Positions 2,728-20,646 of a DNA stretch of 30,166 nucleotides are shown here, in pieces; the first letter of the stretch is position 1, and each line of letters opens with the position of its first letter. The notes beneath the pieces are model-generated. The model saw only the letters and a program-made list of their open reading frames with translations, made no database searches and was not told the DNA's origin. Both the position numbers and the translations under genes were made by a program. The stretch covers positions 1-30,166 of the IMG/VR virus record IMGVR_UViG_3300046656_000613. One strand, given 5' to 3'. Source of the DNA: a virus. Lineage: Duplodnaviria > Heunggongvirae > Uroviricota > Caudoviricetes.

Positions 2728-4605
2728 TTACCTCGGGAAGGGCTCAATGAGAAAGCCGTTTGCCGTTACCTGCCCGGTGGAGGCGGTTGCCAGGGCGGTG
2801 ATTTTTGCAGTCACAACACCTAAGAGGGCTTCCCCTGGCGCGGTGATCAGCGTTGCCTGACTTGAGCCGGCAACGCCCGCGGCGCCGGTGGAGAATGCGG
2901 CCACGCCGATGGCGGCTTGCGTACCCGCCGTGGTTGTCCTGGCCACAAGAGCGTCGAGCTTCCAGGTGCCGCCAGCCAGCAGCAGCGCGCCGGTGTCAGC
3001 CACCGCCGTGGCGCCAAAATACATTCTCATCCGCTTGGTCACGGCAGTCGAAAGCGTTGAGGTTATCCCCCACGCGGTCATTTTCAGATACGATCCGCTT
3101 AGCTCAAGCAAATCAGCCGGAAGCACAAAGCTCATCAAATCGTTTTCGCTTGTGGCGCTGTTGCTTGTTGGCGTTACGTTGAAGTACCTTCCGCCAACAT
3201 TCGTTTCTGCCGTTGTGACAACGGATGCCTGCCACTGATTTCCCTGCACTCTCACTCTTGCAGGCGTGATGCTGCTGAAGAATACAAAGTATAATGTGGA
3301 GTAGGATGTCGCGTTGTCTCGACGAACAACGTTTCCGATAACAGAGATGCTTGAGATAAACGATCCCTGGACGACAATTGCTCCGCTGGCCCCGGCACCT
3401 GTATTGATATTTCTAAGAACGTTTCCGCTAACAACCGCCGCCAGCGTTCCAAAATCCGATGCCCCGCCGTCGATCAGTATCGCCCCGGCCGCCGTTAGTT
3501 CGATATAGTTATGGCTGATGTCTTTGTCAGCAGATGTTTCTGAATAGATCCCGCATCCGGCCCCGCCGCCAGTAGCAGATATGCTGTAAATATGATTGTT
3601 CAGAATTTTATCGTTATACCCCCGCGAGCGGACGCCGGCATCCTTGCATGCCTCAATATAATTGTCGCGGATGGTGTTGTCGGCGGAATTGTAATCTACA
3701 AAAACAGCATCAAAAAATTCAACTACTCCGCTTATTCCAGCAAATAAGCAATCTTCGATGTGGTTATTCAGGGCCTGCTCAGATGCTCCAGACCCAACAC
3801 CGGCAATGTGAATGCCGTAGGTAAAGCAATTCTTGATGGTAAGATCTCGAAAATGAGATTCCTGGCAATTAACTCGAATCGCCGTTAGGGTTGTTGAGGA
3901 GCCATCAAGGTATAACCCCTCAATTCCAATCCGAAGCTTGCGCGTTACACCGTAGTCTTCTGTTTGAAACAGCGGCGATGAAAACCCCGCGGTCGGCTTG
4001 ATCCGGCTAAGCTGGAGTCCCTTCCGATTGTCGCCAAACACAACAACGCCCGTCGGCACCTCCAGCGTTGCGCCGATAGCGTAGCCGAGCACCGTGTTGG
4101 GAACATAGACGCGAAACAGCCCGTCAACACCCGATGCCGCATCGATGGCTGCCTGGAAGGCGGCGGAATCATCCGTGACTCCATCCCCGACGGCGCCGTA
4201 ATCCTGGACGTTGAGGGCGCTGCTGTCGTTGGGGTTGACGAATGACACGACATCAAAGTCGATGGCGTCTACATCGATCTCGGCTGGAGTGGATGACGTG
4301 ACCCTGTAAATGCGACCGGCATTCGCGCTCCCGGCCGCGACGGGGACGCAAGTCCCCTTGGTGAAATCCGTGGCGCCATCAAAATCGACAGCGCGCGTCC
4401 AGTCGCCGGTCGAGGCGTAATAGATGCCGTTGAAGCTGGCGCTGGCCTGATCCTTGACCAGGACGCGATCGTTCTCGACCACGGCGATGCCGTCGATGGT
4501 CTGCTCGCCCGACAATGTAATAACGCCCGTGGTTGCGGCGACCACGGGCTTTTTCATGCCAAACGTTGTGCGCGCGCCCTCCAGGCGATCGATGGTATCA
4601 GGCAT
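2728..4605 (-). CDS. Tailspike / receptor-binding protein with pectate-lyase-like right-handed beta-helix
   Basis: N-terminal VVAATTGVITLSGEQTIDG...DRVLVKDQ...NGIY virion-attachment motif. LNVQDYGAVGDGVTDDSAAFQAAIDAA is a Pectate_lyase_3-type start, followed by Asn/Ile-rich beta-helix repeats. Confidence 0.8.
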   Translation of the reverse strand: MPDTIDRLEGARTTFGMKKPVVAATTGVITLSGEQTIDGIAVVENDRVLVKDQASASFNGIYYASTGDWTRAVDFDGATDFTKGTCVPVAAGSANAGRIYRVTSSTPAEIDVDAIDFDVVSFVNPNDSSALNVQDYGAVGDGVTDDSAAFQAAIDAASGVDGLFRVYVPNTVLGYAIGATLEVPTGVVVFGDNRKGLQLSRIKPTAGFSSPLFQTEDYGVTRKLRIGIEGLYLDGSSTTLTAIRVNCQESHFRDLTIKNCFTYGIHIAGVGSGASEQALNNHIEDCLFAGISGVVEFFDAVFVDYNSADNTIRDNYIEACKDAGVRSRGYNDKILNNHIYSISATGGGAGCGIYSETSADKDISHNYIELTAAGAILIDGGASDFGTLAAVVSGNVLRNINTGAGASGAIVVQGSFISSISVIGNVVRRDNATSYSTLYFVFFSSITPARVRVQGNQWQASVVTTAETNVGGRYFNVTPTSNSATSENDLMSFVLPADLLELSGSYLKMTAWGITSTLSTAVTKRMRMYFGATAVADTGALLLAGGTWKLDALVARTTTAGTQAAIGVAAFSTGAAGVAGSSQATLITAPGEALLGVVTAKITALATASTGQVTANGFLIEPFPR

Positions 4606-17034: not shown

Positions 17035-17157
17035 GGGGATATCCTTTGCTTAAGTGCTTGTTGCTTGAAGGTACACACGGCTACGGAGGGGGAATGACAC
17101 TGCATCACTGGCTGAAAGCCCGGATCATCACGCTAATCAAGCTGATGAGGCCACCCG

Positions 17158-17406
17158 ATGCGGGACAGAAGCAGATCAGAGCGCCGGCACCACGCCGCGC
17201 GCTTGAAAGCCAGGGCGCGATGGATCGCCGGAAACATTTGGGGTCAGGATCGTGAGCAGCGCATTCACGCTGAGCGACTCGCAGATCACTTGGCATATTG
17301 CATGCGACCATGCTGCAATCGTCGGCGGCTACACGAGGGCCGCACTATTCAGGAGAAACGCTATGGGCTGGGGTCCGGTGACGACAATCAAGATGCCGAA
17401 GAATGA
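17158..17406 (+). CDS. Small basic Cys-containing phage protein
   Basis: RSRSERRH...K.R...LA.....C..PCCNRRR...G.T.QE pattern that I recognise from small phage ORFs; RBS GAGG. Confidence 0.55.
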   Translation: MRDRSRSERRHHAARLKARARWIAGNIWGQDREQRIHAERLADHLAYCMRPCCNRRRLHEGRTIQEKRYGLGSGDDNQDAEE

Positions 17407-18529
17407 AGACTTGCTGGCTGATTACGCTAAATACATACGCGAGCATCTTGATAAGAAAATCTTCTCATCCATGTTTATCGGAACCTTCCCGACGATGCTG
17501 GGCGACCCCCAGATCAACATGCCGATGACAGCCACGGAAGTCCGAGCAAAAAAAGAGGCCGCATACAAGGCCCTCAAGACCCGTCTAACCACGCAACTGA
17601 AGGAAAAGAGTATGGAGTCCGAAGAGATCCTGGAAGAGGCGGCGGTGCCGACCCAGCCCATGCCGATGACGCATCACAACCTCATGGCAGCCAGAAATGC
17701 ATTGGTGGCGCGCGGCGTCAGCCCCAGCGATGTTTCGATCGTCCTGCCCGGAGAGAGCTTTCGCTATATTCTCTGCTCGATCAACCAGCCGCCAGCATAC
17801 CGTTTCCGCTTTGCCGACATGGAGATTCTAACTGGCAACGACACCGGACCGCACGGGCGGCGTGAAACGCAGATCTACTTCGCCGGGCACGTCCCGCCGA
17901 ACATGGAACCCGTTGCCCGCGAGGTATTCGCATGCCTCCTGGGGTGTCGCGTCAGTGAACTGCCACATCGCGCCCGCTGCAACAGCGTGGGCACCATGGC
18001 GTATAGCATGAGCGAAATCGCCGTAACCCCCCGCCCCGCCAGCGGCAACAACCGGAATCCGCGTCGCCTCAGCGATCTCTCTTATGAGGAGAAGGTCGTA
18101 GCCGCAAAGGAGTCCGTCGCGGCTTACACTCGTGACAAGAAGCTCCCCAGCGCCGAGATGCTCGCATTGTACCGCGAACTTGACGGCATCCGCACGGCGA
18201 AGAAATGGACCGGAGCGGGCGCGGTCGGGCGCGTCGATCAGCTTGGCAACCTCACCATCAGCGGCCTGCCCGAGGGCGAGCTGGTAAACTGGACCACCGA
18301 GCCTCTTCGGGTCCGGGCCACCAGCATCGTCATCAACTTCCGGCCCAAGGGCGGGGAGCTGAAAAGCGCGCTCATCCCCATCGTCTACGATGTCGATGGC
18401 AACCGTCACGGCCTGACTTCCGAAGCACTCAGCCGCGCGGCTGATAAGGTCGGGGGCTTCGAGCGCGGCGGTCCGAATCGCGACTTTATCGGCGCCGCAG
18501 CGCAGAGCTTCGCGAAAATGCTCGACTGA
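17393..18529 (+). CDS. Hypothetical protein (378 aa from ATG 17393) whose 3' 702 nt overlap the HisF-like gene antisense
   Basis: The first 145 codons do not overlap HisF and read as protein (DLLADYAKYIREHLDKK, EVRAKKEAAYKALK). The ATG overlaps the end of the upstream + gene. There is no stop until 18529. Confidence 0.55.
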   Translation: MPKNEDLLADYAKYIREHLDKKIFSSMFIGTFPTMLGDPQINMPMTATEVRAKKEAAYKALKTRLTTQLKEKSMESEEILEEAAVPTQPMPMTHHNLMAARNALVARGVSPSDVSIVLPGESFRYILCSINQPPAYRFRFADMEILTGNDTGPHGRRETQIYFAGHVPPNMEPVAREVFACLLGCRVSELPHRARCNSVGTMAYSMSEIAVTPRPASGNNRNPRRLSDLSYEEKVVAAKESVAAYTRDKKLPSAEMLALYRELDGIRTAKKWTGAGAVGRVDQLGNLTISGLPEGELVNWTTEPLRVRATSIVINFRPKGGELKSALIPIVYDVDGNRHGLTSEALSRAADKVGGFERGGPNRDFIGAAAQSFAKMLD

Positions 18530-18781
18530 GCGTATTCCACCACCAACAGTGAGCGGGGACATGATCACCCCGCTCAATTCCTTGATCAGCTCGAAATCCG
18601 GCTCCCGGCCTTCCGGGGTAGCGCCGATATCGAGGAGCACCAGCTCATCGACCCCGCGCCGGGCATGCACCCGCACCGCGTTGACCACGCTCCCCACCGA
18701 TCGCCACCCGTCGAACTGCTTCCCTTTCACGGCTTGATGGCCGCGATATAAAATTACTGGAATTATTCTAGTTTTAAGCAA
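17828..18781 (-). CDS. HisF-like (WbuZ/AglZ-type) protein associated with acetamidino sugar modification, with an internal insertion
   Basis: TTG start LKTRIIPV, VKG, VDELVLLDI, PLTVGGGIRS, GADKV, GAGELLVTS..RDG..GYDL, PVVAAGGAG. The position of HisF catalytic Asp11 is Leu. Adjacent to an N-acetyl-sugar amidotransferase. Confidence 0.8.
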   Translation of the reverse strand: MLKTRIIPVILYRGHQAVKGKQFDGWRSVGSVVNAVRVHARRGVDELVLLDIGATPEGREPDFELIKELSGVIMSPLTVGGGIRSVEHFREALRCGADKVAIRTAALEAPDLISRAAECFGSQAVTVAIDIVDDGDERAFQLPALGPEVDDDAGGPDPKRLGGPVYQLALGQAADGEVAKLIDAPDRARSGPFLRRADAVKFAVQCEHLGAGELLVTSVSRDGLLCGYDLLLIREIAEATRIPVVAAGGAGGYGDFAHAIRHGAHAVAAGAMWQFTDATPQEACEYLAGNGFHVRRDVPGEVDLRFTPPVRSGVVAS

Positions 18782-18839
18782 TCCGTGCCTTGCCCTGCCC
18801 TGCCAATCCACGCCCGGCCATGCCATGCCCCACCGTGCC
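18780..18839 (-). repeat. Twelve consecutive 5-nt GGNNN units (consensus GGCAN)
   Basis: Minus strand: GGCAC GGTGG GGCAT GGCAT GGCCG GGCGT GGATT GGCAG GGCAG GGCAA GGCAC GGATT. Confidence 0.8.
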
Positions 18840-18844
18840 GTAAC

Positions 18845-19972
18845 CTACCTAGCCAAAAAGGAATTTTCCCAGACGGCGGGCTTCATCATCGGCCACTGGC
18901 CCGGCGCATCCGAGACATCGAACAGATCTTTGTTCGCATAATGCTGGGCGATCGCGATGAACTCGTTGAAGGTCAGACCGATGTGGCTGAGGGCGTCAAC
19001 CAGATCGATACCCATGTAGTTCCACGGGATTTTCCCGTCGTCCTGGCGGACAATATCGATAGCTTCCTCACGAGAAATCATTCCGTAACGGATGTCAACA
19101 GAAATCTGCGCGCAAAGTCTATTGTACGCGAATTTAAGATACCCAAAATAGTCATGAATTGACGTCTGCCCGTTATCGAGATTCTCTGCTGTCCACCAAG
19201 AATGCGGCATTGGCTTGACTGCCTGCATGCCGGCCGCCACCGCCACCCTTGCATTGCGATGACTGTCCCAGGGGAAGTAAGCCCCGAGGAAGTGGGCCTC
19301 GATCCCGTCGGTGTCCGCGGGCATCATGTAATAAGCTATGTCCTCCCGGCGCAGCCCATGCTGTCCCACCAGATCGACCGGACGCATGCCGAGATGGCCG
19401 CCGAACTCGGTGATCCAGCGGCGAGTCATCTGCCGGGCCTCAAGCGAATCCATCGGCCCGCCATAGGCGTTCTGCGGGCACTCGCCATAGAAGATCAGGG
19501 GGATTTGGTGCATTTTGGCGATGCGCCAAGGCACGTGGAAAATGCTTACGTGTTCCGGCCAGCCGATGTCGCCCACCAGCTCCAGACTTAAGCGGTTTAA
19601 CAGTGCCCGAACCCGCAGGTTCGGAGTGGCCTCGATGGTGTCGGCGTATCGGGCAAGGTTGCGGATGTTCGCCTTGCCGATTTCTGTGAGCATACAGGTA
19701 GTAGCTGTAACAACAAGGGGTCTCACCCCAAGTTCAATAAGCTTTAATACCTGCCAATGACTGTCCTTGCCACCCGAGGACGGCACAATGCAGTGGTAGC
19801 CGTCAGGAGATACTTTGGCAGATTCGAGAATACCCAGCAAGTCCTCTTTACGCCGCTCCCAATCGATCTCATGACGTTTTTTGAAAGAGATGCAGGCCGA
19901 GCACACCCCATCCACGAAGGCGGTATCGGGCCGGGTCGTGGGCATCAGGCATTCTTTGCAGCGCACCAGCAT
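18845..19972 (-). CDS. N-acetyl sugar amidotransferase (WbuX/PseA-like, PP-loop)
   Basis: RCKECLMPTTRP...DGVCSAC, PP-loop CIVPSSGGKDS, WPEH, FYGE, and ISVDIRYGMISREEA. Confidence 0.9.
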   Translation of the reverse strand: MLVRCKECLMPTTRPDTAFVDGVCSACISFKKRHEIDWERRKEDLLGILESAKVSPDGYHCIVPSSGGKDSHWQVLKLIELGVRPLVVTATTCMLTEIGKANIRNLARYADTIEATPNLRVRALLNRLSLELVGDIGWPEHVSIFHVPWRIAKMHQIPLIFYGECPQNAYGGPMDSLEARQMTRRWITEFGGHLGMRPVDLVGQHGLRREDIAYYMMPADTDGIEAHFLGAYFPWDSHRNARVAVAAGMQAVKPMPHSWWTAENLDNGQTSIHDYFGYLKFAYNRLCAQISVDIRYGMISREEAIDIVRQDDGKIPWNYMGIDLVDALSHIGLTFNEFIAIAQHYANKDLFDVSDAPGQWPMMKPAVWENSFLAR

Positions 19973-20598
19973 CAGGCGACCTTCTCAAATAGGGTATATA
20001 CGAGGTCATCTTGAGGGGCGACCGGATCGCGGCTCCAGGCGAAGCCGACATTGCGCACCTCTAGGCCGGGGAACATGTCCAGCATGTCCGCGGCGAAATC
20101 TCTTTTCCATAATTTACCTGCGTGCCCGCGATATTCCACCTCGACCGGCACAGGATTATGATATTCGGCCAAAAAGATAAAGCGCCGGCTCGCCCGGTAC
20201 AGCGCCCCGTAGGCGCGAGCCAATTGCTGCGGGGGGACGTGAATCAACAGGCCCTTGGATAAAACCAGATCATAGCCCCCGCCCCAGGGCTCTTCCGGCT
20301 CCAGCATCGACATCTGAAACGTCTTCACCCCAGCATCGCACAGCTTGCTGGCCGCGAGGGCGTTCACCTCGACTCCGGTAAACTCGCAGTGTGCATAGGC
20401 ATTGATCTGCCGGAGTGCGGCGATGTTGAGGCCGACATTGGCGCCGAACTCAATCACTCGGGTTGGCGTGGCGAAAAACGTCGGCGACAACGCCTTGCGG
20501 AATAGAACCACATTGTTAAATATCAGTCTATCACTTTGATTTCTTTGGGTATAGCTGTCCCCAAAATCGCCTTCCCAGAATTTTTCCGTCTCGCTCAT
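19972..20598 (-). CDS. Pseudaminic acid biosynthesis-associated SAM methyltransferase
   Basis: FWEGDFGDSYTQRN, IEFGANVGLNI, GLLIHVPP, AEYHNPVPVEVEYRGH..KLWKRDFA. ATG 20598 with RBS AAGGG; TGATG coupling to the amidotransferase. Confidence 0.9.
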   Translation of the reverse strand: MSETEKFWEGDFGDSYTQRNQSDRLIFNNVVLFRKALSPTFFATPTRVIEFGANVGLNIAALRQINAYAHCEFTGVEVNALAASKLCDAGVKTFQMSMLEPEEPWGGGYDLVLSKGLLIHVPPQQLARAYGALYRASRRFIFLAEYHNPVPVEVEYRGHAGKLWKRDFAADMLDMFPGLEVRNVGFAWSRDPVAPQDDLVYTLFEKVA

Positions 20599-20603
20599 GG
20601 CCC

Positions 20604-20646
20604 TTGACACCCGTTATAATTATAACTACGTTTGCGCCACATCCAA
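20604..20646. promoter_or_regulatory. Overlapping divergent promoters around a 14-bp palindrome GTTATAATTATAAC (20613-20626)
   Basis: Plus strand: TTGACA (20604-20609)-N17-TACGTT (20627-20632). Minus strand: TTGGAT (20646-20641)-N16-TATAAT (20624-20619). Confidence 0.65.

Follow-up and report, generated by a model that had tools for sequence, protein, structure and literature searches.

Can a gene for a well-understood enzyme carry a second protein gene on its opposite strand, codon against codon, or is an open antisense frame in GC-rich DNA a matter of chance? We addressed this question in a window of 30,166 nucleotides (the whole stretch of DNA analysed; positions 1 to 30,166 of IMG/VR virus record IMGVR_UViG_3300046656_000613), which covers the opening 30 kb of the genome of a soil phage, complete at 94,166 bp and bounded by direct terminal repeats. 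The window's list of open reading frames (ORFs) gives a plus-strand ORF at 17252..18529 (425 aa from GTG), here called gene X, and a minus-strand ORF at 17828..18826 (332 aa), the HisF-like gene WbuZ. An earlier reading of the letters alone (hereafter the sequence-only reading) had described a 702-nt in-register antisense overlap of the two with both frames open, and the ORF list and a register check bear this description out. Our results make it probable that X and WbuZ are a genuine antisense overlapping gene pair, that overprinting in the ancestor of a phage clade extended X over WbuZ, and that constraint is partitioned between the two frames segment by segment. What supports this directly is that both frames are open and conserved, that stop codons are depleted, that synonymous change is locally constrained, that one insert is conserved in the X frame only, and that a Shine-Dalgarno sequence and an ATG are conserved at the start of X.

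The two genes are convergent and overlap tail to tail. In the shared register, codon position 2 lies opposite position 2, and position 1 of X lies opposite the wobble position of WbuZ; because of this register, a stop in X is possible only via a TTA, CTA or TCA codon of WbuZ. The WbuZ stop TAG is read in X as Leu156 CTA (17828-17830), and the X stop TGA (18527-18529) corresponds to WbuZ Ser100 TCA. The sequence-only reading had seen a TTA near the 5' end of WbuZ and none of the three codons inside the overlap; they are indeed confined to residue 26 and to residue 100, the site of the X stop.

How much an open frame is worth depends on codon usage. TTA, CTA and TCA make up 1.16% of the codons in 67 long ORFs of the genome, where the GC content at third codon positions (GC3) is 0.72, and given the codon usage of the 94-kb genome the probability of an antisense frame being open over 232 codons is 0.14. 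In a control set of 74 WbuZ genes of unrelated phages and bacteria, those with GC3 of 0.6-0.8 have about two antisense stops per last 200 codons, and ~10% have none. The warning in the sequence-only reading that in-register frames are often open by chance was therefore correct: an open frame in a single genome proves nothing, and significance comes only via relatives. These figures bear on an alternative that we consider unlikely, namely that only the front of X (~160-195 residues, made up of the X-only part and what faces the tail and last helix of WbuZ) is functional and that the remaining ~200 codons are a tolerated "shadow ORF", open via GC-rich codon usage. The chance of openness per locus (0.03-0.20) is compatible with it, and in-register antisense frames are those expected to be open in GC-rich genes (PMC3454372).

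We obtained DNA of relatives by four routes: contigs encoding called X proteins, contigs of the closest WbuZ proteins, a scan of viral and metagenome contigs with an X alignment, and a scan of viral and genome contigs with a WbuZ alignment. Both frames are open in the same register, with overlaps of 555-825 nt, in 18 of 19 related metagenomic phages. Four lineages with a mutual WbuZ synonymous divergence (dS) of about 1-2 are represented: the window with L005; L002; L007 with L009 and L016; and a group of nine. Among clade members ascertained via WbuZ alone, six of seven are open (L002, L009, L008, L098, L099, L101). In the exception, L100, another ORF has taken the place of X's N-terminal half, and the antisense stop lies within the replaced or recombinant tract. 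The nearest outgroups, L097 (WbuZ identity of about 52-59%, varying with the alignment) and L025 (50%), carry antisense stops, and no X homologue lies beside WbuZ in L025 (the L097 contig is too short to tell).

The L100 locus (3212-3685 and 3050-3258 of that contig) shows some features of its own. A 157-aa ORF on the WbuZ strand stands in place of the X front and has no Pfam match at E <= 0.01, and the 3' tract of WbuZ (residues 212-259) is a divergent recombinant patch. The replacement looks like the footprint of a mobile gene insertion.

Stop depletion was counted in the Leu and Ser(TCN) alignment columns of 15 clade sequences. In the non-overlapped residues 16-78 of WbuZ, TTA, CTA or TCA occurs in 7 of 17 columns (14 of 96 codons), as against 0 of 83 columns and 0 of 321 codons in the overlap (column-level Fisher p = 1.2e-6); three further loci ascertained via WbuZ are likewise without stops in the overlap. 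X ends opposite WbuZ residue 84, 88, 89, 90, 92 or 100, a cluster spanning 84-100, and upstream of these ends more antisense stops are found at WbuZ residues 62-65, 43-46, 26 and 17. A functionless read-through should gain stops at the upstream rate of ~1.5% per codon; that none is seen in 18 genomes and four saturated lineages argues against read-through, and hence against a shadow ORF. Moreover, stops return within 16 codons past the common end point.

Constraint on synonymous change was compared by region in within-lineage pairs, as the share of same-amino-acid codon pairs that differ and as WbuZ dS. The two values are 0.292 and 0.596 in the non-overlapped N-region (WbuZ 16-83), 0.215 and 0.404 at 101-147, 0.081 and 0.165 at 210-252, 0.401 and 0.786 at 253-293, and 0.255 and 0.598 at 294-310. 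The synonymous rate at WbuZ 210-252 is 3.6-fold lower than in the N-region, and 27 of its 42 columns have no synonymous difference (Mann-Whitney U test: p = 2.5e-7 in comparison with the N-region, p = 5.6e-10 in comparison with the neighbouring segment). In a scan with permuted columns the conserved cluster has p = 0.02-0.04 and a fast cluster p = 0.0004-0.001. Several invariant and mostly non-preferred WbuZ codons lie in the conserved segment (Gly227 GGG, Leu230 CTT, Thr232 ACG, Val234 GTA) or farther on (Ala298 GCA), and control WbuZ genes have mixed codons at these five sites. In X they encode Pro, Lys, Arg, Tyr and Cys; the first four are invariant in 37 X sequences, and the Cys just among the 15 clade DNA sequences (14 of 15). 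The variation that WbuZ 210-252 does tolerate yields K/Q, V/I, A/S and S/G in X. The ratio of nonsynonymous to synonymous divergence (dN/dS) of the segment is 0.42, compared with 0.22 in the N-region, and its amino-acid divergence is not reduced, which argues against recent homogenisation. Neither the lower dS nor the invariant rare codons, which lie 80-120 codons inside the overlap, are accounted for by a shadow ORF.

The adjoining stretch behaves differently. At window positions 17948-18070 (WbuZ 253-293) synonymous sites evolve faster than in the non-overlapped part (dS 0.79 vs 0.60), which may reflect diversifying change in a poorly modelled linker of X (residues 196-236).

Since the constraint is concentrated in about 130 nt, it might also belong to a nucleic-acid element in WbuZ, for instance a regulatory RNA in antisense, a promoter within the gene or a folded RNA, with a plus-strand transcript that interferes with the late sugar operon; the genes being convergent, plus-strand transcription must oppose the WbuZ operon. 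We regard this as very unlikely. The segment 18071-18199 has an ordinary folding energy (z -0.5 and -0.35), Rfam has no match to it at E up to 1, and no promoter-like site was found in it. Such an element needs no open frame, and it leaves the stop depletion and the conserved Shine-Dalgarno sequence and ATG unexplained. In addition, the changes tolerated in the segment give the X pairs listed above (K/Q, V/I, A/S and S/G), and an insert shared by two relatives is conserved as protein and not as nucleotides.

This insert lies in the part of the overlap that varies most in length. Between the X motifs ELD and L-S-S-E-x-L, which flank the stretch opposite the beta5-alpha5 loop of WbuZ, there are 29 to 105 codons across the clade. 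L006 and L014 have a long insert in common, with 11 of 63 aligned codons identical. Its columns were taken from the X-frame alignment (independent alignments were also made), and with this caveat 14 codon changes are synonymous in X only and one in WbuZ only (binomial p = 0.001), and the BLOSUM sum is +112 in the X frame vs -1 in the WbuZ frame. We regard this comparison as direct evidence of protein-level selection on the X frame deep inside WbuZ, which a shadow ORF does not explain.

The window has a 188-nt insert of its own in the same loop, and this is a recent in-frame indel. In a root-metagenome strain that is ~93% identical (run X4), 38 other bases replace the 188 nt (a net difference of 150 nt, in frame), and L005 (77% X identity) is also without the insert. 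The C/G-ending plus-strand codons that the sequence-only reading had pointed out here are reflected in a GC content of 0.87 at X codon position 3. That the insert codes for X is suggested by this GC3 value, by a beta-hairpin modelled in X with moderate confidence and by the analogy of L006 and L014; no relative has the same insert. No second copy was found in the genome at the DNA or protein level, and a longer-protein search for a source with the L014 insert module returned X-family members alone. The run X4 strain also differs opposite the WbuZ tail, where window positions 17840-17890 hold 10 substitutions and a frame-restoring +1/-1 indel pair 4 nt apart within 50 nt; the contig has low depth (3.5x), and the indel pair may be an error.

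An insert unique to one strain might be taken for an assembly artefact, or for the block swap preserving both frames that the sequence-only reading had offered as its second explanation, either of which would have produced interleaved pieces of X and HisF. Contigs from three soil or rhizosphere runs, assembled separately although the runs may include the source sample, match 17100-19000 with zero differences, and single contigs of runs X1 and X2 span the whole insert and both junctions. The related strain has a clean in-frame replacement of 188 by 38 nt, and X homologues are collinear in 18 genomes, the front piece and the far C-terminus of X always being contiguous around a hypervariable indel of 29-105 codons. 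Both explanations are rejected and effectively refuted. The "interdigitated" order of the sequence-only reading is roughly right as a mosaic of constraint; as a series of block pieces it does not stand.

Is X a gene in its own right? Its best start is ATG 17363, with AGGAG 7 nt upstream, which gives 388 aa; the start at 17393 in the sequence-only reading is probably 30 nt too late. A Shine-Dalgarno sequence and ATG occur at the start of X in most relatives and most lineages. The ESM Atlas contains a sequence identical to the 388 aa throughout. Searched exhaustively by HMMER, the plus-strand ORF has 33 homologous clusters, with E-values as low as 2e-151. All are of the clade type, and most match in two stretches, before and after the insert; these homologues run through the whole overlap. 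The part of X outside WbuZ has a dN/dS of 0.42-0.75 between relatives, conserved blocks that include the motifs MTATE and VSIVLP..DF, and a coding profile of GC content by codon position (0.53/0.41/0.70). From these counts X would be the younger, taxonomically restricted gene (33 clusters), and WbuZ, with >7800 homologues, the mother gene.

The contrary possibility, that X is not a gene, the spacer being non-coding and the plus-strand ORF a WbuZ shadow plus chance, draws on the family searches and on annotation. X and eight homologues have no family in Pfam, PHROGs or NCBIfam, the only match besides noise being phrog_267 at E = 0.013 with one homologue. The Joint Genome Institute (JGI) gene caller gave WbuZ only, and not X, in L002; in L006 another caller shortened WbuZ to 102 aa. 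We consider this possibility highly improbable. The X-only motifs, the dN/dS and GC signature of the X-only part, the conserved Shine-Dalgarno sequence and ATG, and a confidently modelled domain stand against it, as do the conservation, stop depletion and local constraint of the overlap. Other searches with X gave no match to the phage GenBank collection by blastn and tblastn, nothing in viral contigs scanned with a single X sequence (the alignment-based scans succeeded), nothing in PDB sequences with an X profile, and no usable match in an ESM Atlas feature search with X residues 1-200.

Structure models were made for both proteins with AlphaFold2 (AF2). The X model, from a 37-sequence alignment, has a mean predicted local distance difference test score (pLDDT) of 66.8. 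An alpha/beta domain at about residues 100-195 has pLDDT >90 and straddles the WbuZ stop, its residues 157-195 being encoded by the strand that faces the tail and final helix of WbuZ. Residues 236-285 are modelled as a helical hairpin (pLDDT 86-90), which coincides with the low-dS segment, an agreement that is partly circular since pLDDT depends on alignment conservation. The WbuZ model, from 57 sequences, has a predicted template modelling score (pTM) of 0.77 and a complete (beta-alpha)8 barrel of eight strand/helix units, with pLDDT >90 at residues 20-148 and 210-310.

Two parts of WbuZ that the sequence-only reading had singled out fall outside the barrel. The 65 residues between AIDIV (from residue 143) and DAVKF (from residue 213) were counted correctly, compared with about 20-25 in ordinary WbuZ, and a tail of ~20-22 aa beyond VRRD was also confirmed; no comparable tail is found in ordinary WbuZ outside the clade, and its X side lies in the confident alpha/beta domain. 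With pLDDT of 36-57 in the insert (150-208) and 54-60 in the tail (311-332), the 65-aa loop and the 22-aa tail are predicted to be disordered. The proposal of dual coding by overprinting into a tolerant TIM-barrel loop is supported by the 18 of 19 open relatives, by local purifying selection and by the intact barrel.

Fold searches with X residues 96-220 repeatedly return HK97-fold capsid proteins, as weak matches (VIA Z 5.0-5.5 over 83-98 residues; Atlas TM 0.19-0.25; BFVD E = 4.8e-3). A profile comparison of X with the capsid protein of this phage itself gave nothing.

Several results weigh against an overprinted pair and should be set beside the evidence in its favor. Averaged over the whole overlap there is no excess constraint: an OLGenie-style dNN/dNS is 0.85 vs 0.91 in controls, dSN is 0.82 vs 0.88 in the N-region, and both antisense identity at given WbuZ identity and identity at 4-fold sites are modestly above GC-matched controls and not above the clade's own N-region. 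The average signal cancels out because WbuZ 253-293 evolves faster than the baseline, so that the synonymous-site comparison proposed in the sequence-only reading succeeded locally, at WbuZ 210-252, and failed over the overlap as a whole. A BLOSUM test of the X replacements that arise from WbuZ-synonymous variants gave no more than a trend towards conservative change (p = 0.07). With GC3 as high as 0.72, chance alone would leave a frame of this kind open in about 10-14% of cases, and the sample is biased towards open frames, as X-frame patterns or called X proteins led to several of the relatives. The model is poor over about 40% of X, residues 199-236, the window's insert and the last 45 residues among them. 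L100 is without the X front, and X may therefore be dispensable. Beyond the weak capsid-like matches the searches gave X no family or fold, and the HK97 likeness is a lead, not an assignment. We infer the transcription and translation of X, its origin by overprinting and any function solely from sequence comparison and models. Of the public runs listed as carrying the stretch, none was of RNA. A conserved overlap that lacks average excess constraint, and the low pLDDT across much of X residues 196-388, are also what a shadow ORF would predict; the stop counts, the local drop in dS and the L006/L014 insert favor the overlapping pair.

Table 1. Coordinates of the proposed X/WbuZ pair and of nearby features in the window
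Feature	Position	Strand	Basis or remark
In-register antisense overlap	17828..18529	both strands	702 nt, register 0; X156-388 vs WbuZ 332-100
Putative gene X, 388 aa	17363..18529	+	HMMER homologues, AF2 model
Shine-Dalgarno sequence AGGAG	17351..17355	+	7 nt before X start codon
X-only part, X1-155	17363..17827	+	predicted N-terminal helices and first half of alpha/beta domain
WbuZ/HisF-like cyclase-subunit gene, 332 aa from ATG 18826	17828..18826	-	
WbuZ C-terminal tail, Z311-332	17831..17896		low pLDDT; = X157-178 in the confident alpha/beta domain of X
Apparently doubly constrained segment, WbuZ 210-252 = X237-279	18071..18199		predicted helical hairpin; invariant Y-x-R-x-K-x-L-P motif
Strain-specific 188-nt insert in shared WbuZ beta5-alpha5 loop	18191..18378		about X277-339
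Small upstream ORF, 82 aa, Arg/Cys-rich	17158..17406	+	ORF listing
WbuX N-acetyl sugar amidotransferase, upstream neighbour of WbuZ	18845..19972	-	TIGR03573
Pseudaminic-acid-associated methylase	19972..20610	-	TIGR03587

WbuZ belongs to a large and familiar enzyme family. It matches PF00977 (1.7e-48, 165.5 bits, above the cut-off of 23.6), TIGR03572 (2.4e-64, 216.9 bits, cut-off 299.7) and NF038364 (203.4 bits, cut-off 310); it falls below the two curated cut-offs of TIGR03572 and NF038364 because the insert splits the match, and PF00977 and TIGR03572 each match in two stretches with the insert between them. Homologues begin at the position of TTG 18781, whereas the window ORF begins at ATG 18826. 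The strand-5 Asp and the Gly-rich phosphate-binding motifs are present, D145, G96, G97, G225, G227, G263 and G264 being invariant in the 57-sequence alignment; we take D145 to be the equivalent of HisF Asp130. As in ordinary WbuZ and AglZ/HisF2 proteins (TIGR03572, NF038364), the gene has the family sequence, a predicted (beta-alpha)8 barrel and an adjacent WbuX (TIGR03573, 230.5 bits vs a cut-off of 203.2), followed by the methylase gene (TIGR03587, 196.8 bits vs a cut-off of 112). Unlike those proteins, it has the 65-residue beta5-alpha5 loop and the ~22-residue tail, and no HisH/WbuY-type glutaminase was detected by PF00117 in the complete 94-kb genome (14 of 14 control genomes were positive). 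For amidation the phage would have to draw on free ammonia or on a glutaminase of its host. Farther along the minus strand lie genes for the terminase large subunit, the portal and the major head protein.

Some observations concern this cassette and its surroundings. A terminator-like hairpin with a T-run (17556-17573, minus strand) falls in the X-only region, ~255 nt downstream of where WbuZ stops, and could be the end of the sugar operon; the scan for promoters and terminators, hairpins included, was overall at chance level. On the contig of L003, which is the same contig as that of L009, a 410-aa HNH endonuclease gene (PF01844, PF14279; 2265-3497) has been inserted between WbuX and WbuZ in one lineage, and mobile endonucleases seem to be frequent visitors of the sugar cassette. 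A distant phage WbuZ (L001 3959-5269; 42% identity, 436 aa) has ~190 barrel residues duplicated near-exactly in tandem; this internal repeat may be genuine or may come from misassembly.

The 82-aa ORF upstream of X overlaps the start of X by 44 nt in a different frame and is probably co-transcribed with it. Its homologue is a 92-aa ORF in L002 (1641-1919, minus strand), the two lineages sharing a conserved block around RLADHLA.C..PCCNRRRL, and in L007 a 65-aa gene was called directly upstream of X. Family searches found no match for the 82-aa ORF.

From these results we propose the following course of events. WbuZ would be the older "mother" gene, a HisF-like subunit of a glycosyl-amidation module in a late minus-strand nonulosonic-acid cassette. 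X would be a clade-restricted plus-strand gene that runs from ATG 17363 for 155 codons through the spacer between a spike-partner gene and WbuZ, crosses the WbuZ stop, continues for 232 codons in register antisense to WbuZ 332 to 101, and ends with TGA opposite Ser100. Selection would remove those TTA, CTA and TCA codons of WbuZ that would stop X. Opposite the disordered tail and beta5-alpha5 loop of WbuZ the X frame would be read and selected; at WbuZ 253-293, which includes phosphate-binding strands, constraint would act on WbuZ only; and at WbuZ 210-252, more weakly at 296-305 and 126-135, both frames would be constrained. The shared loop would act as an indel hot spot, where X gains and loses modules of 29-105 codons.

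A further suggestion, which we put forward tentatively and which is somewhat short of probable, is that the C-terminal ~230 residues of X arose de novo antisense to a TIM-barrel gene and are now partly structured, with the hairpin at X residues 236-285 read off beta6/alpha6 of WbuZ, and that the beta5-alpha5 loop is a site evolvable in both directions for beta-rich modules, which the enzyme carries as a disordered loop. With low confidence, X could be an accessory protein that belongs to the glycosylation cassette and is associated with the virion or with assembly. It may also link the expression of sugar amidation to another phase of infection via convergent transcription.

Antisense overlapping pairs are a kind already known; what is new would be how long the overlap is, how deeply it is conserved, that its mother gene codes for a well-understood enzyme, and that the constraint has been mapped as a mosaic. 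The antisense genes of Escherichia coli O157:H7 are mostly short and of narrow taxonomic range, whereas X and WbuZ share about 230 codons, kept across highly diverged phages. Those genes (nog1, asa and others) rest on expression data and resemble X in that they are young, were overprinted in antisense on older genes and escaped annotation pipelines (PMC4683798, PMC6294744, PMC9927249; review PMC7457138). With these genes, the closest cases are two antisense ORFs of Pseudomonas aeruginosa, olg1 (957 nt, within tle3) and olg2 (1536 nt, within PA1383), which resemble X in being long, taxonomically restricted, ascribed to overprinting in a GC-rich genome, and argued from stop depletion and codon-position constraint (PMC8850804). 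Those two lie wholly inside the other gene, and RNA-seq, Ribo-seq and mass spectrometry support them (PMC8850804), whereas the X/WbuZ overlap is terminal (702 nt), comes from an uncultured phage known from sequence alone, and has much deeper comparative support (four lineages, dS 1-2) as well as a shared indel hot spot. A minority of tailed-phage reference genomes have annotated antisense overlaps >50 nt; among Siphoviridae the figure is 84 of 1079 (Schlub and Holmes 2020, PMC7017920). Such overlaps are annotation records without selection tests, and in X/WbuZ both frames were tested. The classic viral precedent, asp opposite env in HIV-1, is argued via stop depletion against simulated evolution of the mother gene, a method cited in PMC8850804; it is retroviral, and we cite it by name alone.

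Few long antisense overlapping genes are on record for bacteria and phages, and the kind is contested, because in GC-rich DNA the openness of an antisense frame is by itself weak evidence. For X and WbuZ, comparative data alone separate chance from selection, through saturated lineages and constraint taken segment by segment. Moreover, the mother gene comes from a very large and well-understood enzyme family, which supplies thousands of controls without the overlap. Annotation pipelines drop one gene of such a pair, as in L002 and L006. Single-base changes can stop one of the two proteins and be silent in the other, and it is therefore testable whether the gene of a folded enzyme can carry a second functional protein in antisense. 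If the tentative suggestion above on the C-terminal part of X and on the loop is true, the pair would offer a natural model of the way in which a single piece of DNA is divided between two proteins.

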